DNA of 60,531 nucleotides from a virus (taxonomy: Duplodnaviria; Caudoviricetes): positions 1 to 60,531 of IMG/VR virus record IMGVR_UViG_3300040979_000011; one strand, 5' to 3'. Position numbers and translations under genes: made by a program. The notes under the pieces are model-generated. The model ran no database searches, was not told where the DNA came from, and worked only from the letters and a program-made list of their open reading frames with translations. Below, one piece after another: positions 16,034 to 60,072 of the stretch; within the stretch, counting starts at the first letter, position 1, and each line of letters begins with the position of its first letter.

Positions 16034-16044
16034 ACGGAGGCAAA

Positions 16045-21775: not shown

Positions 21776-23017
21776 ATGGGTGATTGCATCGTAACCCCTA
21801 TTCAAGCAACAGACTTTGCCAACAGGGACAATAATAGATTAGTCGGCCAGATCACGACTCTAATTATGCGGCGGGCCCCGTTCAACGACACGTTGGATGG
21901 CGGCGTTTTCGAAAACGCGATCAGTGATCAACAGCGCAACGTGGTCGTTGAGCGACCGATTCTCGGTCAATCGTTGGTACTTCCTGAGTACATTAACGAT
22001 ACCGACAGTTGCGGCACCTTCGGCCAGATCGCTCAGGTCGGAACGACCGAGTACATCACTCGGCTTGGCACCCTGCGCGGGCGCGGTCCAAAAGTTTGTG
22101 TAAAACAAATGCGGTCCGCGTTCCAGAACTCGTACGCGGCAGTTCAAGATTCTCTCCAAAAACAGTTGCTCTACCTTGCCAATTGCGACGTTCGAAGCCA
22201 GCTCTTCCTCCACTCAGGAGTGAAGGTCAAAATCAATCAGGGCAGGACTTTCGAACAAATGGTCAACGGCGACGTGCAGATGATTGACGTTCCGATGAAC
22301 GATTCGACTCCGCCGGATGCCAACCTCACCTTCAGCTTTCTCCAATACCTGCTCGTGTTCGCGCACGAGACACTGCTATGCGAATCCTTCGAATCAGAGA
22401 GGGGTACAGTAGCCAAGTTCATTGGCTCGCAGAATCAGTTGAACGTTTTCCGCGACGAACTGAATGTTCACCAGGATCTGCAGTACCTGACCACGGGTCG
22501 GTACGAGGTCGGCACCGAGAGTTTGACCGGGTACAGTTGGGAAGGTCCCTATCGGGGCATTGCCTTTGGTATCGATCAGCAACCATTGAGGTTCAACGCC
22601 TTCACTGTGTTGAACGGGCAATTGATTCCGCAATTCATCGAACCGGAGATTGCGGTTCCTGTCACTACTGGTTTTGGAGCGAGGACTAATCCGGCTTGGC
22701 TCTATGCCCAGTATGAAGTTGGATTTTTGATCTTCGCCAACTCTTTCCGCCGGTTGGTTCCCGAGCAATATTTGGGAGTCGGTGATTGGAAATTCCCGGC
22801 CCAGTTCGCCCAAGGCGAGCTCGAGTTCACGGTCATCCGGGATAACGATTGCAACACCTACGGCGACTACGGATACCACATCTATCAGATGATCAGAGCC
22901 TATCGGCCTGAGCGTCCGCATTCCGTTATTCCGATCGCTTACAAGCGTTGCAACCCGACCTTTAATTTCCTGACCTGCCCGTCCTATCCTGGCACGGCTT
23001 CAGGCTACTCCATGTAA
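21776..23017 (+). CDS. Probable major capsid protein
   Basis: 413 aa, long upstream leader, strong downstream terminator, followed by tail genes; no diagnostic motif verified. Confidence 0.65.
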   Translation: MGDCIVTPIQATDFANRDNNRLVGQITTLIMRRAPFNDTLDGGVFENAISDQQRNVVVERPILGQSLVLPEYINDTDSCGTFGQIAQVGTTEYITRLGTLRGRGPKVCVKQMRSAFQNSYAAVQDSLQKQLLYLANCDVRSQLFLHSGVKVKINQGRTFEQMVNGDVQMIDVPMNDSTPPDANLTFSFLQYLLVFAHETLLCESFESERGTVAKFIGSQNQLNVFRDELNVHQDLQYLTTGRYEVGTESLTGYSWEGPYRGIAFGIDQQPLRFNAFTVLNGQLIPQFIEPEIAVPVTTGFGARTNPAWLYAQYEVGFLIFANSFRRLVPEQYLGVGDWKFPAQFAQGELEFTVIRDNDCNTYGDYGYHIYQMIRAYRPERPHSVIPIAYKRCNPTFNFLTCPSYPGTASGYSM

Positions 23018-23180: not shown

Positions 23181-23513
23181 ATGAGTCATACCAAACCGAT
23201 CGAGTTAGGCCGCAGCTTTGATGAGCTGGCCATTCCGATCATGGAATCGGCCAGAGATAAAAAGCATTACCCAGATCTTTTTCTGAGTGACGTCGACGAT
23301 GAGCGCATTCTCGATCTGCCTGACGAAGGCGTAGCCGAGATCCACTTCAAGGTGATCTCGCGCACCCATCGAGAAGAAAACGGCGATGGCAAAAAGAAAC
23401 GGCGCTCATGCTCGTTGCGGCTCGAGATCTATTCCATCGAGCCCGGTCACGACCCGAAGTTCAACGGCAACGGCAAGAAGAAGAAAACCCACTGGGAGAT
23501 GTTCAATAAATGA
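23181..23513 (+). CDS. Hypothetical protein
   Basis: ATG at 23181; ATGA overlap with the next gene. Confidence 0.6.
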   Translation: MSHTKPIELGRSFDELAIPIMESARDKKHYPDLFLSDVDDERILDLPDEGVAEIHFKVISRTHREENGDGKKKRRSCSLRLEIYSIEPGHDPKFNGNGKKKKTHWEMFNK

Positions 23514-25924: not shown

Positions 25925-25934
25925 GGATTATACT

Positions 25935-27758: not shown

Positions 27759-27955
27759 AACCGAAGACAACGCCGCCGCCACAGCCTAATTCCCAGGTCC
27801 CGATCGGGCTCGCCCCTCAGACCGGTATGCCCGCGATTTATTCGAGCCGATCACGCGAGCTGCTTTACGACACGCTCATGCACGAGCCGCTTTTTGTGAT
27901 GAACCCATTTGGGCCTCAGGTCTTACCTGCTTCACGTAAAAACCATCACTGGTAA
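27755..27955 (+). CDS. Hypothetical protein
   Basis: Coupled to both neighbours. Confidence 0.5.
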   Translation: MKPKTTPPPQPNSQVPIGLAPQTGMPAIYSSRSRELLYDTLMHEPLFVMNPFGPQVLPASRKNHHW

Positions 27956-29452: not shown

Positions 29453-29468
29453 ACCAGACAAAAGCGGT

Positions 29469-29843
29469 ATGTCGCTCATCCAGATCAATAACGAACGCGA
29501 GATCGCTCAATTCGGTATTGACCGAATTGCCGAACAGCTGTGGGGCGGCCAGGTTAGTCGCCAGTTCCCGATCTATCTGGTGCTGCATAAGGGACGAGTC
29601 TGCGGCTTTTTCCAAGCAATCCAGCAGACCTGTATCTACCCGGCGCTGCATCCTGAGATGATGTCCTCACGGGAGTTCGTGAAGGTCGCCAAGAGCTTGG
29701 CCACCGAATTGAAGCGGCACATCGGCAACCCAGTTTTCATGCTCTGCAAAAAGGCAACCGAGATAGGACCCAAAGGTATGCGAATGGTGCGACTCAAGAA
29801 AGCGCCCGAAGAGGCCTACATCTACACCGAGGAGGCTGGTTAA
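29469..29843 (+). CDS. Hypothetical protein
   Basis: Start probably MSLIQIN; position typical of small genes preceding ejection proteins. Confidence 0.5.
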   Translation: MSLIQINNEREIAQFGIDRIAEQLWGGQVSRQFPIYLVLHKGRVCGFFQAIQQTCIYPALHPEMMSSREFVKVAKSLATELKRHIGNPVFMLCKKATEIGPKGMRMVRLKKAPEEAYIYTEEAG

Positions 29844-29844
29844 T

Positions 29845-31296
29845 ATGGGCGGCGGCGGTGGTGGCGGCGGCTCTACTCAATTCAGGGCTCAGGGAGCGCC
29901 CCCGAGCTTTACCTATCTTACGCCCGAGAGCCTTCAGCAGATGGCGGTCGGTGGCGATATCCAATCCTACGCGCTGAGCGATCGGGATTTCGCTAACCGT
30001 TACCCTTCATTACAGAGCGCCTACGATCAGTACCAAGCTAACCTTGGCCAGCAGGTTGGGATCGTCGGCCAGGGCCAAGTTGGGCAAGGGGCTTTGATGC
30101 AGGGCCTGGGCGGCCAGATCGCCGGACGCTGGGCTACACCAACCACCAGCGACATCACCGGGATCCGTAACGCGGCGGCCACTGCCGCGCAGGCGACTCA
30201 ACCAATCTATTCGCTGGGCCAATCCCAGGCCGGGTTAGCTCAACCACTGATTGGTCTTGGTCAGCAGCAGGCCGGGATCGGACAGGGTATCGCCGGGCTC
30301 GGCAGCCAATTAGCCGGTAGATCTCAGGTTCCCTGGCAGACCGGGATGAACCTGCTCAATGCGCCGATTGATCCGCAGGTCCAGCAGCAAATGATGCGCG
30401 CTGGCTTGGGCACGACTGCCGGCGCGCTTGGCGCAGCTTCGCTGGGTCAAGGTATGGCCGGGCAGGCTGCTGCCGCCCGACAGTTGGGCTTGAACACGAT
30501 GCAGTACGGCCAACAACGGCGTGCCGAGGCCATGCAGGACATCAACCAGTATGCCTCGATGCTCGGGCAGGCCGGTCAATTGCGAGGTCTAGGCGCGCAG
30601 ACGATCGGTGCCGGTGGCCAGACCATCGGGTTGGGTGGTCAGCAGCTGCAACAGGGTGCGCAAACCTATGCGCTCGGTGGCCAGAGCGCTGCGGTCGCGG
30701 GCGGCCTTTCGCAAGCGGCTCAAACTGCTCAGGAGCAGTACGGCATGGATACCGCTCAAATGGCCCAGATTTATGGCGGGCTCCAGGGCCAGCAAGCGCA
30801 GAACCTCCTTGGTTCTATTGCCAATGCGGGCCAGCAGTTTGCTAAACGTCCATTCGGCCTGGGCGGCACCAATATCGCCCAGGCCGAGCTGGGCCAGATC
30901 GGAGCCTACAATTCGTTCCAACAGGCCAACTATGCGACGATGAACGGCATTGCCTTCAACGCCGCTCAGATGAACGCTCAGCAGCAGCAGCTCCAGGCCC
31001 AGCAGAGTGCCGGTATGGCCAGTGCCGCAGTTGGTGTGGGAACGAGTGCTGCAACGACCGGCGCGACCATTGCCGCCCTGAGCTGCTGGGTGGCGCGCGC
31101 AGTTTACGGCGAGGGCCACCAGATGCGTACTTTCCGTCATTGGCTTTTAAACAAAGCGCCCAGAATCATTCGTCGGACCTACCTGCGTCACGGCAAAACT
31201 TTTGCCGAGATAGTGCGCGCTCACAAAGTTGTCCGAGCCATGGTCAAACTTTTGATGGATCCTGTCATCGAAAGGACCGTCTATGTCAGACTCTGA
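29845..31296 (+). CDS. Gly/Gln/Ala-rich internal virion (ejection) protein with C-terminal CWVARAVYG domain
   Basis: MGGGGGGG start, low complexity, C-terminal SCWVARAVYG...FRHWL...Y..HG. Confidence 0.7.
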   Translation: MGGGGGGGGSTQFRAQGAPPSFTYLTPESLQQMAVGGDIQSYALSDRDFANRYPSLQSAYDQYQANLGQQVGIVGQGQVGQGALMQGLGGQIAGRWATPTTSDITGIRNAAATAAQATQPIYSLGQSQAGLAQPLIGLGQQQAGIGQGIAGLGSQLAGRSQVPWQTGMNLLNAPIDPQVQQQMMRAGLGTTAGALGAASLGQGMAGQAAAARQLGLNTMQYGQQRRAEAMQDINQYASMLGQAGQLRGLGAQTIGAGGQTIGLGGQQLQQGAQTYALGGQSAAVAGGLSQAAQTAQEQYGMDTAQMAQIYGGLQGQQAQNLLGSIANAGQQFAKRPFGLGGTNIAQAELGQIGAYNSFQQANYATMNGIAFNAAQMNAQQQQLQAQQSAGMASAAVGVGTSAATTGATIAALSCWVARAVYGEGHQMRTFRHWLLNKAPRIIRRTYLRHGKTFAEIVRAHKVVRAMVKLLMDPVIERTVYVRL

Positions 31297-32554
31297 AACC
31301 AAAACTCGTTCCCAAATTCGCGCTGAGACCGCCCAAGCGATCAACAGTCTTTCCAGGGCTGAGCTGCTCAAGAACTTTGCCATCTCACGCGTAGCGGAAC
31401 TGACCGGCCTGGACTCGATCGGCGTGCCCGTCTTTACTTGTGTCCGGGCCCTTTCTGACACGATCAGCATCCACGGCGGCAAAGGTCTGGAACGAGATTA
31501 TGCGCGCTGCGGCGCGATTCTTGAGGGCATTGAATTTGAAGCGGCTGAACATCCGCAAGGCGATTTCATCGTTGGACGACCAACTGATATCCCGGCCGAG
31601 GATCGACTCGCGATTGAGGATTGTTTTCCAACCAGAGCCAGCACATTCAATGATTTCACTCAGCTAGCCTGGGAAGAGGTGACCAACGCCCAGAACGGTA
31701 AAAGCACTCTTATACCCAGTGACCTGATCTGGATGACGTCAAGGTTAAAGAACCAGCCGCTAATGTTTGTCCAGATGGGCTCCAATGGCCTTGCCAGTGG
31801 CGGCACCAAGGAAGACGCGATTTTAAGTGGGCTTTATGAGATCATCGAACGCGATGCCTGGACCTTGAATCAGTTCCTGTTGGATAACTGTGGGGTCTTA
31901 CCAACGCGCAGCCCGCTGATTAACTTGAGCGAGCGCATGGAAGGTCTCGTGCGCAAAATCGAGGCAGCTAAAGTTAAGCTCTACCTCTTTGATATCACGA
32001 CCGACGATTTTCGGGTGCCGGTCTTTAGCGCCATTCTGTTGGACTTGAGCGGCCATGTGGCTGGCACCTTTGGCGGATTCGGTTGTCACCTTAATGCCGA
32101 GGTCGCGGCTATCCGCGCCATCACTGAAGCGGTTCAGGCGCGTGCCTGTTACATCTCGGGCGCGCGCGATGATCTGTTCCGGCGGCAGTTCCTTCTCATG
32201 AAACACATGGATCAGCACAAGCTGGATTCGATGTTCAGCGAGCTGCCGGTTGGTAGTCCACTCAGCGATTATCGGGTAACCAAGTTTCCCGATATCCGCA
32301 CCGAACTTCGTTACCTGCTCAAATTGATCCGGCAATCGGGCGTTTCGGAGGTCTTTGTTAAACCGATGGGTGTCTTTCTGGACGGCGCGGTCCATGTAGT
32401 CAGAGTCTTCAGTCCCCAATGCGAGCCTTTCCGATTCGACCACTGGACTCCCGGTTTGCGCTGCCTCTCTTACGCCACGCGCAAGATGGAAACCTTGGCT
32501 GAGAAAGCGCCACCAGCCAATAACGAGGAGGGCGAACAATGGAAAAAGGAATGA
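31283..32554 (+). CDS. ycaO: YcaO-family ATP-dependent backbone-modifying enzyme
   Basis: TGLDSIGVPV, GKG, EGIE, SNGLASG, EIIERDA, GFGCH, RAITEAVQAR, ISGARDD motifs. Confidence 0.95.
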   Translation: MSDSETKTRSQIRAETAQAINSLSRAELLKNFAISRVAELTGLDSIGVPVFTCVRALSDTISIHGGKGLERDYARCGAILEGIEFEAAEHPQGDFIVGRPTDIPAEDRLAIEDCFPTRASTFNDFTQLAWEEVTNAQNGKSTLIPSDLIWMTSRLKNQPLMFVQMGSNGLASGGTKEDAILSGLYEIIERDAWTLNQFLLDNCGVLPTRSPLINLSERMEGLVRKIEAAKVKLYLFDITTDDFRVPVFSAILLDLSGHVAGTFGGFGCHLNAEVAAIRAITEAVQARACYISGARDDLFRRQFLLMKHMDQHKLDSMFSELPVGSPLSDYRVTKFPDIRTELRYLLKLIRQSGVSEVFVKPMGVFLDGAVHVVRVFSPQCEPFRFDHWTPGLRCLSYATRKMETLAEKAPPANNEEGEQWKKE

Positions 32555-33879
32555 TCCTCGTTTATCTGGGTCCGAGTCTGCCGGTAGCTAAGGCACGCGA
32601 GATTTTACCCAATGCCATTTACCGGCCGCCCGCGCGCCAGGGCGACATTGTCACCGATGTTGTCACCTACTCTCCCTCGAGAATCATCCTAATTGACGGC
32701 GAATTTCGGCAGAATTTGTCAGTCTGGCACAAGGAGCTGGTTTACGCCCTCCAATACCCTGGGATCGAAGCTATTTACGGTGCCAGCTCGATTGGTGCCT
32801 TGCGAGCGGCTGAACTGGATTACCTCGGCATGATCGGCATCGGCCAGATCTACGAATGGTACCGGGACGGAGTGACCGAAGACGATAGCGAGGTAGCTCT
32901 TTCCTATGCGGCTCGCGATTCACTCGATGGGCCAGTCTATTTCCCTTCGACGGTACCGTTAGTTAACATTCGGGCTGCGGTTGAGCATTATGAGCGGGAA
33001 TTCCCGGGCGAACCGGTCGCGATCGCCGCCAGAGAGTTCTTGGAAAGCGCACGCAAAATCTTTTACATGGACCGAACTCCGCAAATCTGCGACCAGCTTT
33101 GGGAAGCGCGTTTCGGAATCAGTTTTCCTTCGATCGATCAGAAACGAATCGATGCGGTTCATGCGCTGACGGATTTCTCCACCTATCAGCCCAAAATAGT
33201 CGAAACGCCTAAGCCGGAATACCTCTCGGGGTTTTTCCAGGCTCTTTACGACCGGGACCGGCGAATCAATGTAAACGGCACCCCGGTCCCACAGCAGCAC
33301 ATCGATTCCTACGTGCTCTTACACAACCCGGAATGGGAACGGATCTGTTGGGATAGCGCTAACCAAGAGTTGGCGCTGATGCTCTGTAATCTCTTTAGCG
33401 TCACCGTATCGATCGAAGAGATCGGCCGGGAAAGCGCACGTTTTCAGAAAAAGAGCGAGATCGTTACCGAGGCCGATTTCCACGCCTTCTTAGAAAACAA
33501 CGGCTGGAGCGTGCCCGAATACGATCGGTTGATGATTCAGAATGCGCGGATTCGCAAACTTCAGCACCACATAACTGTTAGCAAAGGCTATCAGCGCAAC
33601 ACGCGCTCAATAATCGATTATCTGCGTACCCATCAGGCCTTTGATTACTGGGCGGTTCAAGCCGCACGCGAGGAAGAGAAACTCAAAAGCTCGGGCGTGG
33701 ACGATTGGCTCACGATTAATCTGGAGAAAACTGCGCTCGACCAGTTGGCTGAACACTTTGAAAAGGAGGGACTAGAACTCAAAAGCACACCCGAAGAATA
33801 CCTGTTGGAAACCGGATTCTCGAATTTTACCGAGCTGAGTGTAGCGCTACAACGCACCGCTGCAGCTGGGGAGGAATGA
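32551..33879 (+). CDS. tfuA: TfuA-like protein with C-terminal extension
   Basis: VYLGPSL, PPARQGD, IDGEF, VWHKE, GASSIGALRAAEL, GMIGIG, DDSEVAL motifs. Confidence 0.95.
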   Translation: MILVYLGPSLPVAKAREILPNAIYRPPARQGDIVTDVVTYSPSRIILIDGEFRQNLSVWHKELVYALQYPGIEAIYGASSIGALRAAELDYLGMIGIGQIYEWYRDGVTEDDSEVALSYAARDSLDGPVYFPSTVPLVNIRAAVEHYEREFPGEPVAIAAREFLESARKIFYMDRTPQICDQLWEARFGISFPSIDQKRIDAVHALTDFSTYQPKIVETPKPEYLSGFFQALYDRDRRINVNGTPVPQQHIDSYVLLHNPEWERICWDSANQELALMLCNLFSVTVSIEEIGRESARFQKKSEIVTEADFHAFLENNGWSVPEYDRLMIQNARIRKLQHHITVSKGYQRNTRSIIDYLRTHQAFDYWAVQAAREEEKLKSSGVDDWLTINLEKTALDQLAEHFEKEGLELKSTPEEYLLETGFSNFTELSVALQRTAAAGEE

Positions 33880-33883
33880 AACT

Positions 33884-35761
33884 ATGGCCACCGAAGCGAG
33901 TTGGGGCAATCTAAAAAACGTCTTTGGCTTAGACGATACTCAAATCCAGTCACTGCAAAAAGCTGGCTATACCGCTGATCAGGCGACCCAGCTTATGAAT
34001 TTGTCGGTAGGCGGCGGCGGCACAGCGACAACTGGCACCGGCGGCAGCAGCACGCGCAGTTACGCTACTCTTCCCACCATCGGCGGCAGCGGCCTTACGC
34101 CCAGTATGCTGGCTACTTTAGCCACTTTGCTTGGGAGAGGCGGCGGCGGGAATCAAGCTCAAGCTCAAGCCGGCCCGCGAATTGTTAGCGGCATTGGCGC
34201 GCCCGATAACCCGCAGGTGGCTGGCCAAGGCGCTCAAGGCGGCAACCAACTGGCTAGTAACCTCAGTGGTCAAGGCAACCAACTGATTACTGGCGGCAGT
34301 CAAGTCGGCGGCGGTCCAGGCGGCACTCAACAGGTTACTGGCGGCGCGATTGACCCTAATCAGGTAATGATCAATCTGGGTGCGCGGGCGCTAAACGAGC
34401 GCGCCGTTTATCCGCCGACACCGGGTCCAGCCGATCCGACCAGTGGTGTTTCAAGCGGTATCGGGCAGTCTAGCGCAACTGGAGCCACTCCCACTGTTGT
34501 TACGGCTGGCGTGCCAACGGCCCGGAATGTCGGACTAGCAGGCAGAAACCTTGGACCCTGGGCAACTACGCCGGGCGTTTTTACTAGGGTTCAAGCCCTG
34601 CAGCCATCGACCCCAATCGGCACGAGCCCTTTTACGCCCACGCCTCAAGCGACCGGGACTCAAGTCGCTCGGCCGCAGCCTTGGGCCACAGCGCCACCGG
34701 CTCCAGGAGTTAACGTCCAGGGAGTGGTGCCACCAGCTGCCCCCGGTGTAGCTCCTTCAGGTCAGGTTCCAACTCAGCCTGGATTCGATGCAGCTCATAA
34801 CTTGGCATTAACTCATGCCGGGATGAGCTTATATGCTCATTACGGTGGCAATCCCTTTTCTGCCAGCCCTGCGGATATCGCTGGCTTTCACGGTGAACTG
34901 CAGGAGGCACTAAAAGGAGGAAAACCCATTAAGATGCGCTCCGGCGGATTAGTGCCCGGTAGCGGAAACAAGGATAACGTTCCAGCACTCCTGACTCCTG
35001 GTGAGTATGTGCTCACTAAAGAGCAGGCAGCGCAACTCTTCGATGGGAGAACCCCGGTTAAAATGCAATCTGGAGGTTCAGTAACCGACGATGATGACCA
35101 ACCGTCTGAGGTTCCGAGGCCTACCCCGGAATCAGATACCGGCGCGGTCACGGCTCAAGGCAAATCCTACCAAGTCACCCCGCCATCAGAAGCTCCCAGA
35201 AGTAGCAGGCAGAAGTCCAGCTCTACCCCGCCAGCCGCTCCAGGTGGCAGTTCCCAAGATTATGCTAACTGGGCTAATCAACCGCAAAATCAGCAACGGC
35301 CTGCAGCCATCTACGATGCCCAGGGCAATGTGTGGGATAGCGATCCAAAATCGATCGCGCAAGATGTCGGCGGCAAAGGCGCGTACATGGGCCCAGGCGG
35401 TGAAGTTTATGATGCCAGTCATAATCTGGTTACTTCCAATGCGGACCTAACCGCGCAAGCCGCTGCTGGCCCAGGCGCAACGATGACTGGCAATCCGATG
35501 ATCGGCGATGGCGCTGGCGGTACCTCGAATGTCGGCAGGAATGTCGGCAGCGCGCTCGGCGGCCTTGCTTCAGCGGTCTCTCAAGCCGCCCAGACTTACG
35601 CTAACTCAATTCAACCCTGGACTTGGCAGAAGTCAGCAATCCCAAATCCGCCGAGTAGTCAAGGGCAACAGCCAGCTGCTCAATTGAGTCAGGTTCGAGC
35701 GCAGCCCAGTAGGCGACAGCAGACGATTTCCCCATTTACCCCTTATTATCCGTACACATAG
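33884..35761 (+). CDS. Gly/Pro-rich internal virion protein
   Basis: SGGLVPGSGNKDNVPALLTPGEYVL motif typical of ejection/tape-measure-like proteins. Confidence 0.7.
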   Translation: MATEASWGNLKNVFGLDDTQIQSLQKAGYTADQATQLMNLSVGGGGTATTGTGGSSTRSYATLPTIGGSGLTPSMLATLATLLGRGGGGNQAQAQAGPRIVSGIGAPDNPQVAGQGAQGGNQLASNLSGQGNQLITGGSQVGGGPGGTQQVTGGAIDPNQVMINLGARALNERAVYPPTPGPADPTSGVSSGIGQSSATGATPTVVTAGVPTARNVGLAGRNLGPWATTPGVFTRVQALQPSTPIGTSPFTPTPQATGTQVARPQPWATAPPAPGVNVQGVVPPAAPGVAPSGQVPTQPGFDAAHNLALTHAGMSLYAHYGGNPFSASPADIAGFHGELQEALKGGKPIKMRSGGLVPGSGNKDNVPALLTPGEYVLTKEQAAQLFDGRTPVKMQSGGSVTDDDDQPSEVPRPTPESDTGAVTAQGKSYQVTPPSEAPRSSRQKSSSTPPAAPGGSSQDYANWANQPQNQQRPAAIYDAQGNVWDSDPKSIAQDVGGKGAYMGPGGEVYDASHNLVTSNADLTAQAAAGPGATMTGNPMIGDGAGGTSNVGRNVGSALGGLASAVSQAAQTYANSIQPWTWQKSAIPNPPSSQGQQPAAQLSQVRAQPSRRQQTISPFTPYYPYT

Positions 35762-35772
35762 CAATTTAACTT

Positions 35773-38472
35773 ATGGCCGATCCAGCTACCCAATTCCAAA
35801 CCGCCAGTCTTCAAGCCTCAGGCTATACACCAGTTACTGGTGGAAACCTTGGTGGCTCCCATCTATTCGGAGGCGCTGGAGCGCTCTGGGCACAGGTTGG
35901 CAAGACAGCTCTGGAGGCCGGTGAAGCGATCCAAAAATCACCTCTCAATCCGGCGGTGAGAGCGCAGATACAATATAATGTTGATCAGTACAAGCGTGGT
36001 CAGGAACTAATCGCAAAGCAGCGTCAGATGGGCGATTGGGGCTACCTGCTGGGACAAACCGGTCCGCAAGGCTACAGTCAAATTGCTCCAGGACAAATCA
36101 CTGATCCTACTCTGGCGCAACAGTATCTAAATAGACTGATACCTGGGTATCCCTCAGCAGGAGGAGGCGGCACAGGACCACCGCCAGCTGTCAACACAGA
36201 CACTGGCGAAGGGGGAGGACAGCCTGCGCCACAAGCACCACCTGCAACACCACCAGGAGGACCACCACCTGGAACTTTTTTAAGTCCCGCCACCGGAAGT
36301 TACGAGCCGTTGCAGCAGCCTGAGCAGCCGCCGCAGAAGAAACCAGAGGAGAAGAAGGAGAAGAAGAAGCCGCCTACCGCAAAGGAAATGGGACGTGGTA
36401 CCGCACAGGTCACTCCTGCGACGACTAACATGTTCGCTGCCGCGACCGGAGCACAAGCTCCTTCTCCAACTGACTTCCAGGGACCAACTCAAGCTCAAAC
36501 AGATGTAGCGGTTCGAGAAGCCTTAGGTCGCAACCAGTTCGTTTCTAGTGAACGAGGTGTTCCGGCTGGTTACCAGCCGCCATCGGGTTATTTCCTTAAT
36601 CCGGCTACGGGAAGTTACGAGCAATTGCAAGCGCAACAACCGCAAGCGCAACAACAACCCCAGGATCAGGATCAGACACCGCTGGGCAAACAGCTGATGA
36701 GCCAGTGGCAAAATCAGAACGCGCACCCGGTTGCGCCGGTCAGTGAAGCGCTCAAATGGGGCAAGAACAATTTTGATACCCGGATTCAGGATGCGACCTA
36801 TCTGCCGCATGGCGGCCCACTGAATCAGCCTGCTTACGCCTTCCATATGAAGGGAGGTGGGACAAATTTGGTCCCACTCTCGCAGATGGTACGAAACGGG
36901 TTCGCGCCTAATGTAGCCGGAAACCAGACCTCGATAACTTTGAGTCAGGCCGACGCAATGCAGCCGCAAGCGGACCAAGGTCAGATGCAGCCCACTGGGG
37001 CAGTGAGCGGTCAAGCGCTAGCGCTGCAACAGGGGCAGGGCGCTCAGCCTGCTGTCCAGATGCAGCCAACCGGCAATGTGGGCCAGCCGCAGCCGCCGCC
37101 GGCTGCGCCCGGAGCTGCGCCAGGAGCGATTGCCGGGGGGCTAGCCGGTGCGCCAGCGGCTCCAGGCGGTCAAGAGCTGAGGGATATCTACGGGAATCCT
37201 CTCAGTGCTTATACCGGCCTTCCGTCTAGAGGTGGCCCAGGCCCTGAGCAGTTAACTGCTCAAACGGGACCGGCAGGCACACGTATTGAGCCCGCGCCAT
37301 CACCCACTATTCCTAACGTCTCCAAAGCGGATCAAGATCTGGTCCAAGGCTTGGCAGACAAGACGGCGAAAGACGCTCCCGTTGATAAAATAAGTGGTGA
37401 TCGCAGAGTGGAAGGTACTCCGGCCGGAGGTCCGACTTATTATATAGACGACAACCCCGATTCACCCAGTCGAGGGCGTGTTTACACAGTTCTGCCAGGA
37501 CAGAAAGGATCCTATTATGATCAGGACCGTTGGTATTTAGGTAGAAACGAATACAGAACGTATTCGCTGCCTACATCTGTGATGCGGCAGCATATGGAGG
37601 ACTACTGGGTCAAAGCTGGTCAGCTTACGCCAGCGGAGATCAAAAAGATGAGTCCAGAGGAGATGAAGCCGTGGCTGGAGCGGGCTTGGCAGAATAACAA
37701 TTATACACGGTCTCCTGCAGAGACGGGCACCAATCTCAGCCTTGATACGTTGGAGGATCTCCATAAAACCACTGCGCAAATTAAGGATATACTTAAAACA
37801 GTGGCCAAGCATGGGTACCCAAAGTTGAACTCGATGGATAGAGGTAATGCTGCAATACAGAATGCAGAAACATCTATTGGGCTTCGTGGGGAATGGCTCC
37901 GCTTCATGGAGCCGAGTGTTGCTGAGGCCGTCCGCACCTTGGATCAGAAACTCGATCATGCACGTATTTTGATCAAAGAACATCCAGAATTACTAGTTAG
38001 TCTTGGTACGGCCCAAGGATTAGGATTGCCTAGCCTTCCTGTGCCAATGGTAGGAAATGTAGAACTGCCGAGCATACCGAAGTCAGATGTCCTTAGTGAT
38101 TCAGCTTTTTCCGGCCAAGATGTGGATGCCAAATTAAAGGCCCTAGATGGTTACCAGAAAGCCGTTGATACTCGCTACAAGAACTTGGTTAGCGGAGCCC
38201 AGACGCAGTGGCAAAAAATCGATGATAGACATGCAGCGAACCTGATTAGGTTAGATCAAGGCAAGGAGATACCTGACGAGACCAATCTTTATAGTAGCCG
38301 CGAGCTTCCGACGGTAAGCGAAGCCAAACCGACTGCTCAACCATCACCAACACCTATGGTACATGTTAACAGTCCATCGGAGTTCGAGGCATTCAAAAAG
38401 AAATATCCTTCTGGAACACATTTTATGGGTCCAGACGGCAGTGGTGGCGTCAGAGAGTGGGTAACACCATAG
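35773..38472 (+). CDS. Large internal virion protein
   Basis: 899 aa, Pro/Gln-rich, in the ejection operon. Confidence 0.65.
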   Translation: MADPATQFQTASLQASGYTPVTGGNLGGSHLFGGAGALWAQVGKTALEAGEAIQKSPLNPAVRAQIQYNVDQYKRGQELIAKQRQMGDWGYLLGQTGPQGYSQIAPGQITDPTLAQQYLNRLIPGYPSAGGGGTGPPPAVNTDTGEGGGQPAPQAPPATPPGGPPPGTFLSPATGSYEPLQQPEQPPQKKPEEKKEKKKPPTAKEMGRGTAQVTPATTNMFAAATGAQAPSPTDFQGPTQAQTDVAVREALGRNQFVSSERGVPAGYQPPSGYFLNPATGSYEQLQAQQPQAQQQPQDQDQTPLGKQLMSQWQNQNAHPVAPVSEALKWGKNNFDTRIQDATYLPHGGPLNQPAYAFHMKGGGTNLVPLSQMVRNGFAPNVAGNQTSITLSQADAMQPQADQGQMQPTGAVSGQALALQQGQGAQPAVQMQPTGNVGQPQPPPAAPGAAPGAIAGGLAGAPAAPGGQELRDIYGNPLSAYTGLPSRGGPGPEQLTAQTGPAGTRIEPAPSPTIPNVSKADQDLVQGLADKTAKDAPVDKISGDRRVEGTPAGGPTYYIDDNPDSPSRGRVYTVLPGQKGSYYDQDRWYLGRNEYRTYSLPTSVMRQHMEDYWVKAGQLTPAEIKKMSPEEMKPWLERAWQNNNYTRSPAETGTNLSLDTLEDLHKTTAQIKDILKTVAKHGYPKLNSMDRGNAAIQNAETSIGLRGEWLRFMEPSVAEAVRTLDQKLDHARILIKEHPELLVSLGTAQGLGLPSLPVPMVGNVELPSIPKSDVLSDSAFSGQDVDAKLKALDGYQKAVDTRYKNLVSGAQTQWQKIDDRHAANLIRLDQGKEIPDETNLYSSRELPTVSEAKPTAQPSPTPMVHVNSPSEFEAFKKKYPSGTHFMGPDGSGGVREWVTP

Positions 38473-38483
38473 AGCTTTATTAA

Positions 38484-41400
38484 ATGCCTACGGCTGCAGA
38501 GCGCGTGTCTTTGGAGGAGGCCAGTCGATATGCCGGGAGCCCAACGCCATGGACATCTGAAAACGCTCCAGATGTTGGCCTTGATCCGAACAAAGGATTT
38601 ACCAATCCACAATTTGGAGTCTCGCAGCCAGTCCAGTCCACTCTGCCGCCGGAAACAACTCCGCCTCCTTCGATGGCACCGGGGCTGGGAACGATAGGCG
38701 GAGCGCCTCTTGCTGAGCCGACAAAAGAAAAATGGACCCCGGCTGATGCTGGTGCAAAGCCAGTTAGTGATCAGAGCAAGGCAGAGACCGCAACTGACAA
38801 CAAGCCCAGCGATAAACCTGCAGGGAAATCATGGACTCCGGCTGATGTCGGTGCAAAGCCAGTCGATCAGACCGCAGCTTCACAGCCCACAGAGAAATCA
38901 TGGACCCCAGCTGATGGCGGTGCTAAGCCAGTCACCACCGAGGCCCAGCCACAGCCGCAGCCACAGCCGCAACCCCAGCCGCAGGCCAAGCAACCGTTAG
39001 TCGTCCCAGCCCCGACACCTCAAGGACCGACGACCACCGAACAACTGCCCGAAGGGCAAGAAGATCAGCATACCCGGATCAATGACCTGATTACTTCCGG
39101 GAAAAGTCCGGGTGAAGCCCAGGCCATCGTCAGTGGCAAGGAGCCTAAGACAATCTCAGGAGCACCGCCGAAGGTAGTCAAACCCGAGGAACCTAAAGCG
39201 CAGGCCGAGCCCGAGGCTCCTCAAGTGCCCCTGGAGGAAGATCCTGTCTTGAAGCACTACCGGGAGGTGGCTCGGCAAAGGGCTCAGGCAGAAGCTCAAC
39301 CCCAGACAACGCAACCGCAGCAGCCTCCCCAGATGATTGAGTACTCGGCTAACCCCAATGCTTATAGCAAGGGCCGGGGCGGTAACCATATCCAGAACAT
39401 TATCCTGCATTCCAGTGATGGCAGCGAAAAGGGCGATGTTAACCAGCTGACTCAACACCTCTCGTCCCATTACTATGTCACCCGGGATGGACGGATCTAT
39501 CACTTCGTTAATGACAACGACAGCGCGTGGCATGCCGGAAAAACCATCAATAATAACACCTACGGCAATTCGGCTACCATTGGCATTGAACAGGAGCACG
39601 TCGACGGCAAACAGGATTGGCCCGAGGCCCAGGTGCGAGCCACTGCTCGATTAACATCCTACCTGCAAAACAAATATGGTCTCAGTAATAGCAACGTCCT
39701 GAAACATTCGGATATCGCACCGGAACGCAAAGTCGATCCGATCGATTATCCCTGGGATAACTTCTATAAATATGTGGCCGAATCCGGCGGCGGCGTCGGC
39801 AAAGGCATAGCTGGTCACGGCGGCGGCGCACTACTGCCGAAGTCCACGGCTGGACTCAATGTCACTCATTTCGGTTACAAGACTGATCCGAATCTCGATC
39901 CCGAAAGCGCCAAAGGTCATGGCAAGTACGTCGACCACATGATTGCTGGCTACGATGTGGCACTGAATAAGGCAGGAGCAGCAAAAGTTGGGAACCCTAA
40001 GCCCGGCGCAAAATTTATTTATGATGGCAGAGAATTTCGTTACGCAGACGCCGTTCCAGAGAAATATGCTGATGCGCGCTTTGACGTGTTTGACCCCAAT
40101 TTCGGCGGTCGCGAAGCAGAGGGCGGCAAAGCTGTCGCTGGTGCCGGTAAAGGCGGCAAAGCTCTCCCCGGTGGAGGTGAAGGCGGGAAACCATCACTCG
40201 AAGGCGGCGGAGGTGCTCCAATTCTCGGCGGTGGTCCGATGGTTTCGGTAGGCTATGCCGGGCCTAGTGGTTCTGCGCAAGCAGAGCAGCAGCAAAGCCC
40301 TTTTTATGCCGGAGGTGGCCGTGGTGGTGGTGGTGCGACCGAAGCTGCACCGGGCGGTGGCGAGTTTTCCATTTCTTACCCTCCCTCACTTGGAGGCGTT
40401 GTTATTGTTGGTGATGGAAAAACCAAAGCGAAACGAATTGCTTCAAAAGAAGAAGAGGAAGAGGAAGAAGATCCCGTGGTCACAGCGCTGATGACTCGTG
40501 GGTTTACACGCCCACAAGCTCTTAAGTTTGCCCTGAGCAGTCGGGCTCTCATTTCCCCTATAGGTGTTCGGGGTGTTCGGACGCAACCTCCAGCTGCTCC
40601 GATACAGCCTTCGACCGCCAAGCCTTTGGCGCTCCCTCCGCCTGCGCCGGCTGCGGCAACGGCGACAGGCGTCAAGCCTTCTCCCGAGGTTACGCTCCCG
40701 TCAAAGCAACCGCAGATCCCTGCTCGGAAAGTTCCACCAACTGCTGCACCGTCAACTGCTGCGTCAGCCGATAAACAGGCGGTAGTCCAGGCTTTAGTGG
40801 GCATGGGTATCAAGAAAGCGCATGCTCAACAGCTCGTAGCCAATGTGCATGGCGCTAACGTAGATGAGCTATTGCGAAACGCTTTAAGAGCGCACGCCCA
40901 GGCCGTCAGGGGAGTTGAGGGCGGCTCCTTCAGGCCACCGCAGCAAACTCCTCCTCCAGCGCCGCCGACACCTAAGCCTCAGGAGCAACGGACCACTGCG
41001 CCAGAGCCGGTGTTGCATAAAGCGCCAGTTCCTGAGCCAGAACCACGACCGGCTGAGGAACCGACTCCGTATCCTACGACAGGTGGAACCCATGGTGTAG
41101 CAAACCCGCCATCATTCGCGAAGCTTACACCAGGACTGAAGTTGTCTGACGCGGTGAAGGAGCACGCTACACTGGTCTCTGAGGATGACCCGCGCGTCAA
41201 GAAACAGGCTGACGGCATGACCAAGGGCGAGCACTTCGTCCCAGGAGATCCGATTCATGATCAGCTGCTTAATGGGTTGCCCGAAGGCCAAGGCGGACGC
41301 CAGCATCAGATACTAGGCGAAGCTGAGCAAGCAATCGCGGAAAAGCGACCAATGCATATCAGCTATCTTTCCGCGCCCAAAGAAGCCCAGCGTTACCCAA

Positions 41401-44225
41401 CCCGCGAATCGCGAATGGTTCAATATGACGAGCACAGCCCTGAGGCGCGTCTCATGGGTACAACAGTGGGCCAACTAGTGGGGCACAGTTTCATCCCGAC
41501 TGCGATTGGCATCAAGCTTCCTACCAAAGCCGATGAACCCCACCAGAGCTATATCCAGGGCATCTCAACTAACATTCTGGCCAACAATTTCCAGCACCTC
41601 AATGAGAAGCTGGCCTCGATGGGTGTGGAAACACCTTACAAGAGTCTCGGACACAAATTCTTTAACGATTTAGAAGGTTATTTTTCTAATTTGAATGCCG
41701 GACATAGCGGCACCGGACGCGGTTATGCGATTGGCACCGAACACCACCCCAGCGAACCGGACACCTCACATGTGCCCTATAAGCTGACTCATAAGGAAAC
41801 TGATTTTATCAATACGGTGATTAATAACACCGCAGCATTTGCCAAACACGAGGACGCGCAGAAGCTGCGGGACTTGGCCAGAGCCAATGGCACTCTGATC
41901 ACAGAGGAAGGTGAGACCAACCGCATGCGGCACAATATCGAACAGCACGAGCCCGGTTGGCGGCAACGAGTGCTGGAGCCAAGTATCCGAACTTTTAAGA
42001 CCGGCCTGATCGTTGCTCACCATGCAGGTGAGCAGAATATGCCGCAGACCATCCGGCCCGGTAAAGAGTTCCAGGATCTGACGCGAGCCATACAACGCAC
42101 CAGTGAGCGGGGTCGACCGGATGTGCCGATCAGTGTTTCGCTCCATCATAGCTTCCACGACAATCGATTAATCAACAAGATCGAACGTGAGTTCTCCGAA
42201 AACCGGATCGACGAGGCAGAGGCACGCAGACAGTTAGAAGCCATGGGTGAAGATCCCAATGAATACCGTTTTCACGGCGGCAGCGGTGGCTTGATCACGC
42301 CTTATGAAGAGGACCCGGAATCGATCACGCCGGAGGAACACACCCAGATGCGGGATAACCTGCGCAAACAATGGGTGAGCGGAAAACTGAATATCGAGGA
42401 CTACCGCAGAAAAGCTGCCGAAGTTCCGTTACCCTCAAAGCCGTCCCAGGCAGCTGCGCCCAAGCCAATCTCAGAGCCCGAAGAGCCTGAGACACCCGAA
42501 GAAACGCCGGGAACGCCCACTGCCGTGCCGAAAACTGCCGCCCCTATTCCCAGGCCTAAACCGGTACCAGAAGCGCCCCCAGAGCCTACAGAGAAACCGC
42601 AGATACCAAAGAAACCCGGCACTGAAGAACTTGCTAAGCCCCAGAAAGCTCAACCACCGGCACTGGGCGAAGCGCCCAAGGCAGAGGCCAAACCTGAAGC
42701 TGAGGGTGCCCCATCTAGCCGTGAAGCAGGCGAGGCATATCGGCCACCTGTAGAGCCGCCGCCGGCACCGGGTGAGGTGCCCACCCCGACCAAGGCGAAA
42801 GCCTTAACCAAGCCTGCCCCCAGCGCCGCGCAAGGCCTAGAGAAACCCAAGTGGGAGCGCGCAACCGAGAAACAGCGGCAAGCTTATTTAAAACAGCGAG
42901 TAGCTCAGACCCTCGAAGAGCAGCATTCCGATGCCATGCCGCTCAAGCCGATCATGGACGAAAAAGGTGGTTATTCTTATGATCCGCAAGGCAATCCGCG
43001 CTTTGAGCAGCCCGATTATAATCTGGTTAATTCGCCATTATTAAAGAAGAAAGCCCTTGGGCAGATTGAGGGCGCGGACGACCACGAGGACCAATTGAGC
43101 GAGGATGAGCATAACCACCTCAACTTCGTTGAGCGACGGCGCTTGAGCGCAATGCGCAAGACTAGCGCCGTCAAAACCATGGGCGATCGGATCGTCCAAA
43201 ACTACAATCAGATCAAAGACATTCCCGAGATCGCTGCCGGTAAAGGCTGGTACTCGCGGATGCGTGAGAAGCTCCAGCAACATCTGGGCGATGATCGTGA
43301 GATGTTCGCTCAACTGCTGGGAGCCACCAGTGCTAAAACGCCGGTGCGTCACAACTTCATCCAGGCTCTGGACGCTTATGAGCAATGGAAACGTGGCGAT
43401 TTCGATAACCACATCCAGAAGTATCTGGAGGCCCATAACCAGCTCCAGCAAGGCGGCAAAGGCGCGCTGACTAAGTACATGCGCGAGAAAGGCATCCTGG
43501 GTGAGAACGATCCTGATCATAAGAGTGATGCAGCGGCCATGGCCCACTGGATTGATCATCACGGGATCTTGCCTAAGCAGCAGAACGGATCCAAGTACAA
43601 TGCCAATAGCGATCAGGTCTTGAAGGTGCTCGCCGGTACATGGCTCAAGGAAGTCGGCGCACCCAAGACGCCCAACTTCGCCGGGAACCTATCCGGGCGC
43701 ACGCTCCAGGCGACAATCGATGTCTGGGCTGCACGGCACTTGCGTCGACTCGGCTACGAGGGCCAGACCGGCGACGAACCCTGGCGGCATCAGCCGCGCG
43801 GCGAACCGGGCGTGAGTGGCCTCGATTTCGCCTTCAGTCAGGACGCGATGAAGCATGCGGCCGACAAGATCGGCGTTAACCCAGACGATCTCCAGGCTAT
43901 CCTCTGGTACGCTGAGAAACATCACTGGGACCAGCAAGGCTGGACCCGGGGTGAGGGCTCCAAGAAAGCATCCTTTGACGATGTCTTTGATAAAGTCTTT
44001 TCTAAGACTGGTGAGCCGATGAGTTCAAATGATCTCCGGGCCCATTATGCGGCGGAAGCCGAAAAGGCTAAGCGCGTCACTAAAGCCCAGGAATACATGA
44101 CTCACGCTGATCCTAAGATGCGGGCCAAGCTCGAACCCTACATGGCCAAGCACGGGCTCGCACACGAGGACCTGCGGGCGGCTGCGCCGCAAGAAGAAGA
44201 GCAGGGCCTCGAAGAAGCGGCTTGA
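38484..44225 (+). CDS. 1913-aa multi-domain virion protein with N-acetylmuramoyl-L-alanine amidase (Amidase_2) domain
   Basis: IILHSS...SSHYYV...AWHAG...NSATIGIE...HSDIAPERKVDP; further folded domains separated by Pro-rich linkers. Confidence 0.85.
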   Translation: MPTAAERVSLEEASRYAGSPTPWTSENAPDVGLDPNKGFTNPQFGVSQPVQSTLPPETTPPPSMAPGLGTIGGAPLAEPTKEKWTPADAGAKPVSDQSKAETATDNKPSDKPAGKSWTPADVGAKPVDQTAASQPTEKSWTPADGGAKPVTTEAQPQPQPQPQPQPQAKQPLVVPAPTPQGPTTTEQLPEGQEDQHTRINDLITSGKSPGEAQAIVSGKEPKTISGAPPKVVKPEEPKAQAEPEAPQVPLEEDPVLKHYREVARQRAQAEAQPQTTQPQQPPQMIEYSANPNAYSKGRGGNHIQNIILHSSDGSEKGDVNQLTQHLSSHYYVTRDGRIYHFVNDNDSAWHAGKTINNNTYGNSATIGIEQEHVDGKQDWPEAQVRATARLTSYLQNKYGLSNSNVLKHSDIAPERKVDPIDYPWDNFYKYVAESGGGVGKGIAGHGGGALLPKSTAGLNVTHFGYKTDPNLDPESAKGHGKYVDHMIAGYDVALNKAGAAKVGNPKPGAKFIYDGREFRYADAVPEKYADARFDVFDPNFGGREAEGGKAVAGAGKGGKALPGGGEGGKPSLEGGGGAPILGGGPMVSVGYAGPSGSAQAEQQQSPFYAGGGRGGGGATEAAPGGGEFSISYPPSLGGVVIVGDGKTKAKRIASKEEEEEEEDPVVTALMTRGFTRPQALKFALSSRALISPIGVRGVRTQPPAAPIQPSTAKPLALPPPAPAAATATGVKPSPEVTLPSKQPQIPARKVPPTAAPSTAASADKQAVVQALVGMGIKKAHAQQLVANVHGANVDELLRNALRAHAQAVRGVEGGSFRPPQQTPPPAPPTPKPQEQRTTAPEPVLHKAPVPEPEPRPAEEPTPYPTTGGTHGVANPPSFAKLTPGLKLSDAVKEHATLVSEDDPRVKKQADGMTKGEHFVPGDPIHDQLLNGLPEGQGGRQHQILGEAEQAIAEKRPMHISYLSAPKEAQRYPTRESRMVQYDEHSPEARLMGTTVGQLVGHSFIPTAIGIKLPTKADEPHQSYIQGISTNILANNFQHLNEKLASMGVETPYKSLGHKFFNDLEGYFSNLNAGHSGTGRGYAIGTEHHPSEPDTSHVPYKLTHKETDFINTVINNTAAFAKHEDAQKLRDLARANGTLITEEGETNRMRHNIEQHEPGWRQRVLEPSIRTFKTGLIVAHHAGEQNMPQTIRPGKEFQDLTRAIQRTSERGRPDVPISVSLHHSFHDNRLINKIEREFSENRIDEAEARRQLEAMGEDPNEYRFHGGSGGLITPYEEDPESITPEEHTQMRDNLRKQWVSGKLNIEDYRRKAAEVPLPSKPSQAAAPKPISEPEEPETPEETPGTPTAVPKTAAPIPRPKPVPEAPPEPTEKPQIPKKPGTEELAKPQKAQPPALGEAPKAEAKPEAEGAPSSREAGEAYRPPVEPPPAPGEVPTPTKAKALTKPAPSAAQGLEKPKWERATEKQRQAYLKQRVAQTLEEQHSDAMPLKPIMDEKGGYSYDPQGNPRFEQPDYNLVNSPLLKKKALGQIEGADDHEDQLSEDEHNHLNFVERRRLSAMRKTSAVKTMGDRIVQNYNQIKDIPEIAAGKGWYSRMREKLQQHLGDDREMFAQLLGATSAKTPVRHNFIQALDAYEQWKRGDFDNHIQKYLEAHNQLQQGGKGALTKYMREKGILGENDPDHKSDAAAMAHWIDHHGILPKQQNGSKYNANSDQVLKVLAGTWLKEVGAPKTPNFAGNLSGRTLQATIDVWAARHLRRLGYEGQTGDEPWRHQPRGEPGVSGLDFAFSQDAMKHAADKIGVNPDDLQAILWYAEKHHWDQQGWTRGEGSKKASFDDVFDKVFSKTGEPMSSNDLRAHYAAEAEKAKRVTKAQEYMTHADPKMRAKLEPYMAKHGLAHEDLRAAAPQEEEQGLEEAA

Positions 44226-46179: not shown

Positions 46180-46325
46180 GTGCGTGCAGTAATTTACCAC
46201 ACGCACTTTCTGCGAAGCCTCTGTTTAAGCCGTTTCGCTGGTCGTTTCCCTGGGAGCGAAAAAATAATTTGACATGATTATTCACTTTGACTTATCAAGT
46301 GTGGTTTGCATTCGATGTCGGTCAA

Positions 46326-49157: not shown

Positions 49158-49402
49158 GAGGGTGTTCTATCACGCTTTCGCACTGCCGCAACTTCTCGCA
49201 GATTTGGTATCAGCTTCTGTATCAAATCGGGGCGCTAAAAGCCCTTTCTCCTGGGGAACAGCTCGTCCCTCCGGGACGAGCGGACACCAAAAATTGCCCC
49301 AGGCAAGCTCTGTCTCCTAGGAGCGGTGAAAATTCTGTATATAAAAAGTGTGAATCCTGTTGATCTTTGACCGATCATACTGTATCATCTGCACAATCGT
49401 AT

Positions 49403-54145: not shown

Positions 54146-54170
54146 GATTTTTCTTTCGCTTTTTTATTTT

Positions 54171-57298: not shown

Positions 57299-57308
57299 AG
57301 GACTTTTT

Positions 57309-60071: not shown

Positions 60072-60072
60072 T

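Follow-up and report, generated by a model that had tools for sequence, protein, structure and literature searches.

Does a virus thioamidate proteins and, if so, which ones? The question is raised by two adjacent genes, ycaO and tfuA, in the IMG/VR virus record IMGVR_UViG_3300040979_000011, a linear sequence of 60,531 bases with a completeness estimate of 82% (the window, meaning the whole stretch of DNA analysed). The window comes from an uncultivated soil podophage lineage, and the pair lies within an unbroken run of plus-strand genes leading from tail-fibre genes (14417-18306) to a 1913-aa Amidase_2 protein (38484-44225). Only two thioamidated proteins are said to be known, McrA and ribosomal uL16 (PMC13063428; PMC5589413), and the biological role of protein backbone thioamides is described as still debated (PMC13063428). 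A first reading of the sequence (the original prediction) had proposed that the phage may thioamidate its own structural proteins. The YcaO-TfuA pair is found to be a conserved, selectively constrained part of the phage virion-module operon.

An intact YcaO-TfuA pair joined to its neighbours

The two genes, and the two parts of the tfuA product, are located as follows.

31283..32554, plus strand: YcaO, 423 aa, of the TfuA-associated, putatively thioamide-forming type (PF02624)
32539..33879, plus strand: TfuA, 446 aa (PF07812)
32539..33198, plus strand: catalytic-type N-terminal domain of TfuA, residues 1-220 (PF07812; AlphaFold2 predicted local distance difference test, pLDDT, mostly 83-97)
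33202..33879, plus strand: all-helical C-terminal extension of TfuA, residues 222-446, stop codon included (kept in 40 homologues; pLDDT 47-84)

YcaO belongs to its superfamily by a match to PF02624 that spans profile positions 2-324 of 325 (E 4.7e-55; 187.6 bits, cut-off 25.7), and it also exceeds the cut-off of TIGR00702 (165.5 against 75.65 bits). A family profile built from 34 homologues (62-91% identity) aligns over its full length to the solved thioamide-forming enzyme MJ1094 (6pe3/6peu; E 8.4e-40), and the blocks GAILEAIEF, SNGLASG, YEVIERDAW, and AIRAITEAAQAR are aligned with their MJ1094 counterparts. Among the 34 homologues 108 alignment columns are invariant; E81, E84, N168, G169, E186, E189, R190, R278, E282, Q285, and R287 are invariant and fall in the MJ1094-aligned blocks. 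The acidic and basic residues of this set are presumably the ATP/Mg ligands of published YcaO work. Azoline-forming MusD, LynD, and TruD match the profile far more weakly (E about 1e-14), and the E. coli YcaO (4q84) matches over residues 161-280 only (E 4.8e-5).

TfuA matches PF07812 over the entire profile (1-119 of 119; E 2.7e-30; 105.1 bits, cut-off 30) and is a member of that family. Residues 4-216 of its model superpose on the TfuA of M. acetivorans (6xp8) with a Z of 24.2 and a root-mean-square deviation of 2.3 Å over 200 residues at 36% identity (VIA), a relationship also returned by Foldseek (E 1.1e-13). For both proteins the best NCBIfam models are those of McrA-type thioamidation proteins. 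The original prediction of a complete pair is thus borne out, and the two proteins are predicted, with good confidence, to constitute a functional thioamide-forming system. The helical extension of TfuA has no clear solved match; SurA-like and trigger-factor rows over residues 267-348 stayed below the trust level (Z 6.7-6.9; VIA). When the whole model was searched, Foldseek returned matches to the N-terminal domain only. The sole Atlas result was a TfuA cluster, scoring 0.75. The extension is partly common to a 433-aa TfuA from Prochlorococcus.

The pair is tightly joined to its neighbours. The start codon of ycaO (ATG, 31283) falls within the upstream gene, 14 nt from its end at the TGA stop (31294-31296), and tfuA begins (ATG at 32539, or an ATGA overlap at 32551) before the ycaO stop (32552-32554) is reached. 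After the tfuA stop (33877-33879) the next ATG lies at 33884, with GGGGAGGA just before it. On direct reading, the predicted overlap at 31283-31296 and the predicted 4-nt gap before 33884 are exact. Since these genes overlap or lie 4 nt apart, there is no gap the size of an open reading frame (ORF) among them for a short precursor of the kind found in clusters that make RiPPs (peptides synthesized ribosomally and modified post-translationally), which agrees with the first reading.

Conservation and descent of the pair

Conservation was examined in 13 close IMG/VR loci, which were picked through YcaO itself and are 63-69% identical. The gene order capsid - 23510 - 25935 - 27755 - 27956 - 29376 - 29845 - YcaO (genes labelled by window position) is common to 13/13, TfuA follows in all 12 that continue beyond YcaO, and downstream genes are partly recognisable in most. 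When the 607-aa gene served as the marker instead, the search recovered these 13 contigs again and one more that is truncated inside the marker. A capsid-protein search of IMG/VR gave 400 relatives, the best 80 of which were examined. Among these, a sister clade (capsid 64-72% identical) carries YcaO in 5/5 records, with the block of 29376-like gene, 29845-like gene, YcaO, and TfuA intact and with YcaO 35-37% and TfuA 35-38% identical. In a more distant clade (capsid 43-48%), YcaO is absent from 5/5 complete genomes, and no TfuA was found by tblastn in the four searched.

Beyond these clades, a large protein database held 641 matches to YcaO, the best 120 being 62-100% identical and many of them on 60-80 kb contigs, and 2270 matches to TfuA. 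Hundreds of close homologues are thus present in protein databases, on contigs of about 40-80 kb. An alignment of 23 representatives lacking genomic context led to 80 viral loci, out of at least 85 IMG/VR matches, that were scanned with our own profile hidden Markov models (HMMs). TfuA follows YcaO in 72/72 loci that extend far enough; the other 8 end within 117 nt past YcaO. A second lineage, with contigs of about 40-47 kb, is present among these loci. One representative of it has the same architecture as the window and encodes a structural protein, a tail fibre, a protein bearing the C-terminal tail described below, YcaO, TfuA, a 270-aa protein, and a protein of at least 1450 aa. With a conserved and constrained pair in virion operons of several phage lineages, the reach of protein thioamidation would widen to include viruses.

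For cellular relatives, one genome per GTDB species was scanned with YcaO patterns. Eight YcaO loci were found, the best of them 37% identical and located on a Prochlorococcus single-cell contig; no prophage copy was seen among the GTDB representatives in this pattern-limited scan. In the Prochlorococcus contig (3.7 kb) TfuA, in its long 433-aa form, precedes YcaO (L015, 336-2882), and the two are flanked by an ABC-transporter fragment and a glutamine amidotransferase-like gene. A quick maximum-likelihood tree of YcaO was read only at strongly supported forks. In it a single clade of 40 rows unites the two phage clades with 22 database representatives that lack genomic context (Shimodaira-Hasegawa-like approximate likelihood ratio test 99). 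Seven of the eight cellular loci lie well apart from this clade; the eighth, from Prochlorococcus, is unresolved just outside it.

Selection and composition bear on whether the pair could be a recent passenger, or an assembly chimera with bacterial DNA, that plays no role in the phage. In the closest pairs dN/dS is 0.05-0.08 for YcaO and 0.08-0.11 for TfuA (0.05-0.11 together), compared with 0.09-0.12 for a neighbouring structural gene and 0.01-0.03 for the capsid. The G+C content of the YcaO-TfuA region (0.54-0.59) is like that of its surroundings, start and stop overlaps join both neighbours, and the same place is kept in 13/13 independent related contigs, with the pair present in 5/5 sister-clade records. 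Together with the 37% identity of the nearest cellular homologue, these observations led to rejection of the passenger or chimera explanation, which is hardly credible. The window is a single metagenomic contig, so misassembly had to be considered at the outset, but nothing in favour of this explanation was found. The original prediction had named absence from related phages and near identity to a bacterial locus as the outcome that would speak against it; instead, related phages carry the pair and no such bacterial locus was found.

Candidate substrates and proposed chemistry

The best candidate substrate is encoded directly upstream of ycaO, at the position of the second internal virion protein (IVP-B) of podovirus operons. 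Its gene and the parts of its product are listed here.

29845..31296, plus strand: virion-module protein rich in Gly, Ala, and Gln, 483 aa, at the IVP-B position, best candidate substrate (homologue before YcaO in 13 close loci and 5/5 sister-clade records)
29848..29871, plus strand: poly-Gly run, residues 2-9 (read directly)
31024..31083, plus strand: Ala/Gly-rich hydrophobic stretch, about residues 394-413, just before an invariant Cys (alignments)
31084..31293, plus strand: C-terminal Cys-motif domain, residues 414-483, C-W-V-A-R-x-x-[F/Y]-G ... W-x-x-[F/Y]-R, CFI-box-like (NF041770 match)

The 483-aa protein matched no Pfam family. Its poly-Gly N-terminus had been put forward as an example of a modified segment. 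A run of 6-8 Gly is indeed kept in 10/10 close homologues (one Ser breaks it in L004), but it is absent from the sister-clade homologues read, which retain YcaO-TfuA, and was therefore rejected as a general substrate; within the close clade it may still be one. The Ala-rich stretch and the Cys-motif domain track YcaO better. In four of the ten close homologues (L002-L014), a hydrophobic, aromatic leader of 15-25 residues precedes the Gly run.

In 71 of the 80 YcaO-selected viral loci a protein with the Cys-motif tail ends just before YcaO. In these tails an Ala/Gly-rich hydrophobic stretch is followed by C-W-[V/I]-A-R-x-x-[F/Y]-G, by W-x-x-[F/Y]-R, and by further conserved positions; no variation is seen at C, R, G, R, and Y among 58 unique tails. 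The tail resembles the CFI-box-CTERM family NF041770, a C-terminal domain of about 69 residues that starts with Cys-aromatic-aliphatic-Ala and runs on to aromatic-Gly. The window tail matches the whole profile (1-69; E 1.8e-5) at 24.4 bits, below the cut-off of 40 for membership, and matches at E 0.01 or better were obtained for 4/18 diverse phage tails, none shown above the cut-off. No literature was found on the CFI-box family or motif. None of the 8 cellular YcaO loci has a Cys-motif tail.

By analogy with characterised systems, YcaO would activate a backbone amide carbonyl with ATP, TfuA would pass on a sulfide equivalent from a thiocarboxylated ThiS-type carrier of the host, and C=O would be replaced by C=S in the substrate backbone. 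TfuA together with a ThiS-type carrier is described as delivering sulfide (PMC13063428). No ThiS (PF02597) was found in the 4/4 phage records searched for this family; a host carrier would thus be needed. The pair would be made together with the late virion proteins, and the substrate would be a phage ejection protein. Because of co-transcription, translational coupling, and a gene block kept over deep divergence, a phage late protein is the most economical substrate. The chances are about evenly balanced that the substrate is a virion-module protein of the phage, and the protein directly upstream (29845-31296) is chosen more tentatively. The likeliest site would be in or next to its Ala-rich hydrophobic stretch and the Cys-W-V-A-R...[Phe/Tyr]-Gly domain. 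The stretch is common to all YcaO-linked upstream homologues, tail-less ones included, and the adjacent Cys motif is the other candidate site. It is accordingly a tentative proposal that YcaO-TfuA may install a backbone C=S in the Ala-rich/Cys-motif C-terminal region of the IVP-B-position protein. Taken as a whole, an accessory thioamidation system, vertically inherited in a podophage ejection operon and acting on a phage ejection protein, is a reading that we place only just short of an even chance.

Several observations weigh against this reading. Both enzymes fall below the cut-offs of the McrA-related equivalog models (YcaO, 166.7 against 365 bits for TIGR03266; TfuA, 140.5 against 235.2 bits for NF033432), so they do not count as orthologues of the McrA type, and only family membership underlies the chemistry assigned to them. 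YcaO-TfuA lies away from such a tail-bearing gene in 3/80 YcaO-selected loci, and seven YcaO-TfuA phages (the complete genome G002 and six loci) have no Cys domain. In a reverse test, a degenerate DNA pattern for the Cys motif gave at least 120 stretches in IMG/VR. Among the matches listed, HMMs confirmed the Cys domain in 79/80 of these motif-selected loci (L235-L314), and YcaO-TfuA is present in only 5/67 with at least 400 nt downstream. Moreover, the cultured marine Puniceispirillum podophage HMO-2011 carries the Cys domain at the end of gp25 (L355, 9001-9210, listed with the domain) in the order tail fibres - gp25 - gp24 - gp23 - gp22 (1128 aa), without YcaO-TfuA. Adjacency is itself weak evidence of an enzyme-substrate relationship because structural-module gene order is kept by descent, and the argument for a phage-protein substrate comes from gene order. 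Of the original prediction, then, the conserved and constrained pair in the virion operon stands, and the thioamidated structural protein is suggested by gene order only.

The reverse test led to rejection of the Cys-motif domain as a dedicated YcaO-TfuA precursor. Together with the YcaO phages that have no such domain, it indicates that the domain is common in this class of podophage proteins and that YcaO-TfuA is an accessory placed behind it in most lineages. On this view thioamidation would serve as an optional means of tuning an ejection-protein module that is itself widespread, and would not belong to a dedicated precursor-enzyme pair. This widespread C-terminal domain is an uncharacterised feature of podophage proteins that merits a study of its own. 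In the domainless phages the upstream protein stops exactly before the position of the invariant Cys (L123, 14833-15552; L170, L172, L174, L218, L220, and L222), which looks like clean domain loss, or the mature protein may end there. In L225 (5923-8063) YcaO-TfuA lies between terminase and replication genes (DnaB-like helicase, exonuclease, and dNMP kinase), and in the complete genome G012 (the genome of L226) it lies about 16 kb from the tail-domain protein.

The departures from strict adjacency also bear on whether the pair modifies a host protein, either in late takeover or counter-defence, or after travelling in the virion alongside the internal virion proteins and entering the next cell by ejection. 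In that case co-packaging, and not the nearness of a substrate, would account for the pair's position in the ejection operon. Such a role fits the retention of YcaO-TfuA in the seven phages without the upstream Cys domain and its location elsewhere in 3/80 loci, and the reaction would in any case need host ATP and a host ThiS-type carrier. In Pseudomonadota YcaO acts on uL16, a part of the central cellular machinery (PMC13063428), and podovirus IVPs carry cytoplasm-bound domains, for example the virion RNA polymerase of N4 (PMC4819975). However, the uL16-modifying E. coli enzyme is only remotely alike, as the short 4q84 match indicates, no packaging signal or IVP fusion was seen, and the strict place after the same virion gene in 71/80 loci would not be required. 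On balance a host protein is an unlikely target.

The invariant Cys (58/58 unique tails) raises the further question of whether YcaO catalyses another reaction at this residue, either azoline formation or an Ala-Cys backbone cleavage that removes the C-terminal domain, with TfuA as an accessory. The YcaO superfamily is described as making azolines, amidines, and thioamides and, in some cases, carrying out proteolysis (PMC13063428), and the natural domainless homologues end exactly before the Cys position. Against such a reaction, TfuA follows in 72/72 extending loci, and association with TfuA marks thioamide formers (PMC8120280); the closest solved relative is likewise a thioamide former. Furthermore, the Cys is equally conserved in the 74 tails from YcaO-negative loci among the matches listed, so YcaO is not needed to explain it. 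A different chemistry at the Cys is therefore regarded as quite improbable.

Comparison of the tails with and without YcaO provides a substrate lead. The YcaO-negative tails are uniform, with C-W-V-A-R-E-V-Y-G in 64/73 unique sequences among the matches listed. Motif positions +5 to +7 are mostly A-A-F with YcaO and E-V-Y without it, and the 20 residues before the Cys contain 42% Ala with YcaO against 17% without; the difference is suggestive, although it is confounded by phylogeny and sample choice. Thioamitide cores are Ala-rich. An Ala-rich stretch enriched in YcaO-positive phages could also be read as the thioamidated core of a RiPP-like precursor, formed by the upstream C-terminal part or by an unrecognised small ORF, from which an active peptide would be released. 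Known TfuA-YcaO clusters mostly make thioamidated peptides (PMC8120280), and the nearest cellular pair, in Prochlorococcus, adjoins an ABC-transporter fragment. The phage operon, however, lacks genes for a protease, a transporter, or other tailoring steps; the overlapping genes leave no short ORF next to the pair; and the supposed precursor is a virion-module protein of 280-550 aa that is conserved in phages lacking the enzymes. We consider peptide production here to be improbable, and continue with thioamidation of a phage ejection protein.

If that reading were true, the ejection protein would be the earliest known viral case of protein thioamidation, preceded among proteins of all kinds by only two. 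Such thioamidation would represent a new class of virion post-translational modification that tunes a membrane-penetrating ejection device in several uncultivated podophage lineages. The set of candidate substrates is small and can be checked by co-expression and mass spectrometry.

The surrounding operon and related systems

The other genes of the run that matter for the setting of the pair are given below.

14417..18306, plus strand: two tail-fibre/tail proteins (PHROG tail and tail-fibre families, E down to 3.1e-32)
21776..23017, plus strand: major capsid protein, HK97 fold, 413 aa (AlphaFold2 model, pLDDT 72.4, with Foldseek)
29469..29843, plus strand: small protein at the IVP-A position, 124 aa from an internal Met (ORF open from 29376), kept upstream of the 483-aa gene
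33884..35761, plus strand: 625-aa protein rich in Gly, Ala, and Pro, IVP-C-like by position, downstream of TfuA (composition; phrog_35029, E 9.6e-11)
35773..38472, plus strand: 899-aa protein rich in Gly, Pro, and Gln, IVP-like by position (composition; no family match in Pfam or PHROG)
38484..44225, plus strand: 1913-aa protein with Amidase_2 and DUF7178, IVP-D-like by size, position, and muralytic domain (PF01510, E 5.7e-25; PF23802, E 2.6e-10)

Podovirus IVP operons are described as containing a small non-structural IVP-A of an acetyltransferase family, a small IVP-B, and large helical IVP-C and IVP-D (PMC4819975), the last two often with muralytic or cytoplasm-directed domains (Hardies et al., 2016; PMC4819975). 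The genes flanking YcaO-TfuA are rich in Gly, Ala, Gln, and Pro, and their position, size, and composition suggest internal virion or ejection proteins. On this scheme the window genes would map as IVP-A-like (29376/29469-29843), IVP-B (29845-31296), IVP-C-like (33884-38472), and IVP-D-like (38484-44225), and YcaO-TfuA would be an insertion between the IVP-B and IVP-C positions. No match in Pfam, PHROG, or PDB sequences names any of the flanking genes as IVP-A to IVP-D of T7 or RIO-1. The 29469-29843 protein has no Pfam match; an Atlas score of 0.97 links it to viral clusters of 119-136 aa, some with GNAT domains, and is a lead only. The 33884-35761 protein has a weak tape-measure match (E 6.4e-4, PHROG) and is partly covered by tblastn matches of 33-45% identity in 9/13 close loci. 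In the 1913-aa protein Amidase_2 occupies residues 301-419 (nt 39384-39740), and PHROG amidase and endolysin families are matched as well.

The IVP operons of the T7 (gp13-gp16), RIO-1, and HMO-2011 groups share their order with the window: downstream of the tail genes come a small non-structural protein, a small IVP, and large helical IVPs with a muralytic domain (PMC4819975). The correspondence was drawn from position, size, and the Atlas lead, with no sequence match to T7. HMO-2011 is closer in that its gp25 has the same C-terminal Cys-motif domain and the same gene order as the window. As an enzyme-family gene inside the operon, IVP-A offers a setting like that of YcaO-TfuA (PMC4819975), and the pair adds an enzyme class to the few catalytic genes of podovirus ejection-protein operons.

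Three characterised groups of enzymes invite comparison. The archaeal McrA system (MJ1094, 6pe3/6peu; TfuA, 6xp8) has the same two families in the same adjacent pairing and full-length homology to the phage pair, as shown by the profile and model alignments above. Like it, the phage pair probably has a whole protein as its target instead of a short leader-core peptide. Unlike it, the phage proteins lie below the equivalog cut-offs at about 30-36% identity, their genes are in a virion operon with no McrA in context, and TfuA has an extra helical domain of about 225 residues. The E. coli-type YcaO acts on folded uL16 and, like the phage enzyme, has no precursor gene nearby (Rice et al., 2026; PMC13063428). 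It demonstrates protein thioamidation beyond methanogens. In contrast to the phage YcaO, which is paired with TfuA and matches it only weakly and in part, it works without TfuA, none being encoded nearby (PMC13063428). The TfuA-YcaO clusters that make RiPPs (thioamitides and others; PMC8120280) have adjacent ycaO and tfuA genes as in the phage, where the possible target would be an Ala-rich hydrophobic segment. The phage locus differs from them in that genes for a short precursor, a protease, a transporter, or additional tailoring steps are missing.

No phage-encoded YcaO or TfuA was found described in the literature searched (titles and abstracts), and the words phage, virus, and viral are absent from the main text of a survey of bacterial and archaeal TfuA clusters (PMC8120280). 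A tblastn search of 50,697 GenBank phage records gave no match to YcaO or TfuA either, in line with the original statement that no characterised phage example is known. The enzyme families are thus known, and it is the viral virion-operon setting and the implied substrate class that are new.

For the capsid protein (21776-23017) no sequence match was found in Pfam, PHROGs, PDB sequences, or GenBank phages (tblastn). The top Foldseek matches of its model are podophage capsids (cyanophage A4, Moo19, N4, and DEV; E 5e-9 to 4e-8), with TM-scores of 0.42-0.60 against podophage capsid chains, consistent with an HK97 fold. The capsid is 93-96% identical among phages whose other virion proteins are at 50-80%, and it has the lowest dN/dS given above (0.01-0.03). 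Neither the 804-aa nor the 607-aa protein matched PDB sequences, and the 607-aa protein had no tblastn match in GenBank phages. Between two large virion genes, a 66-aa Pro-rich ORF (27755-27955) is kept at 51-66% identity in 13/13 close relatives. Near the YcaO-TfuA pair no other small ORF is conserved, and this one lies 3.3 kb upstream of it.

With the libraries used, hardly anything in this phage group's replication module could be annotated. No tRNA gene was found within the window, and no RNA sequencing run containing the stretch was found among the runs listed. One soil-metagenome run contains the stretch in full and may be where it came from; the other runs contain small shares of it. 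Large minus-strand ORFs in 53435-60531 (832, 441, and 466 aa) have no Pfam match, and the 832-aa one has no PHROG match. Downstream of the virion module lie genes for a ParB-like protein and a phrog_1 integrase (E 4.2e-24) (46274-47527 and 49367-50662), which hint at a temperate or plasmid-like lifestyle. A 492-aa protein (51942-53420, minus strand) contains an FkbM-type methyltransferase domain. Also on the minus strand, a 623-aa protein (10693-12564) combines a pectate-lyase-like domain with DUF4082 and is probably a tailspike or depolymerase.

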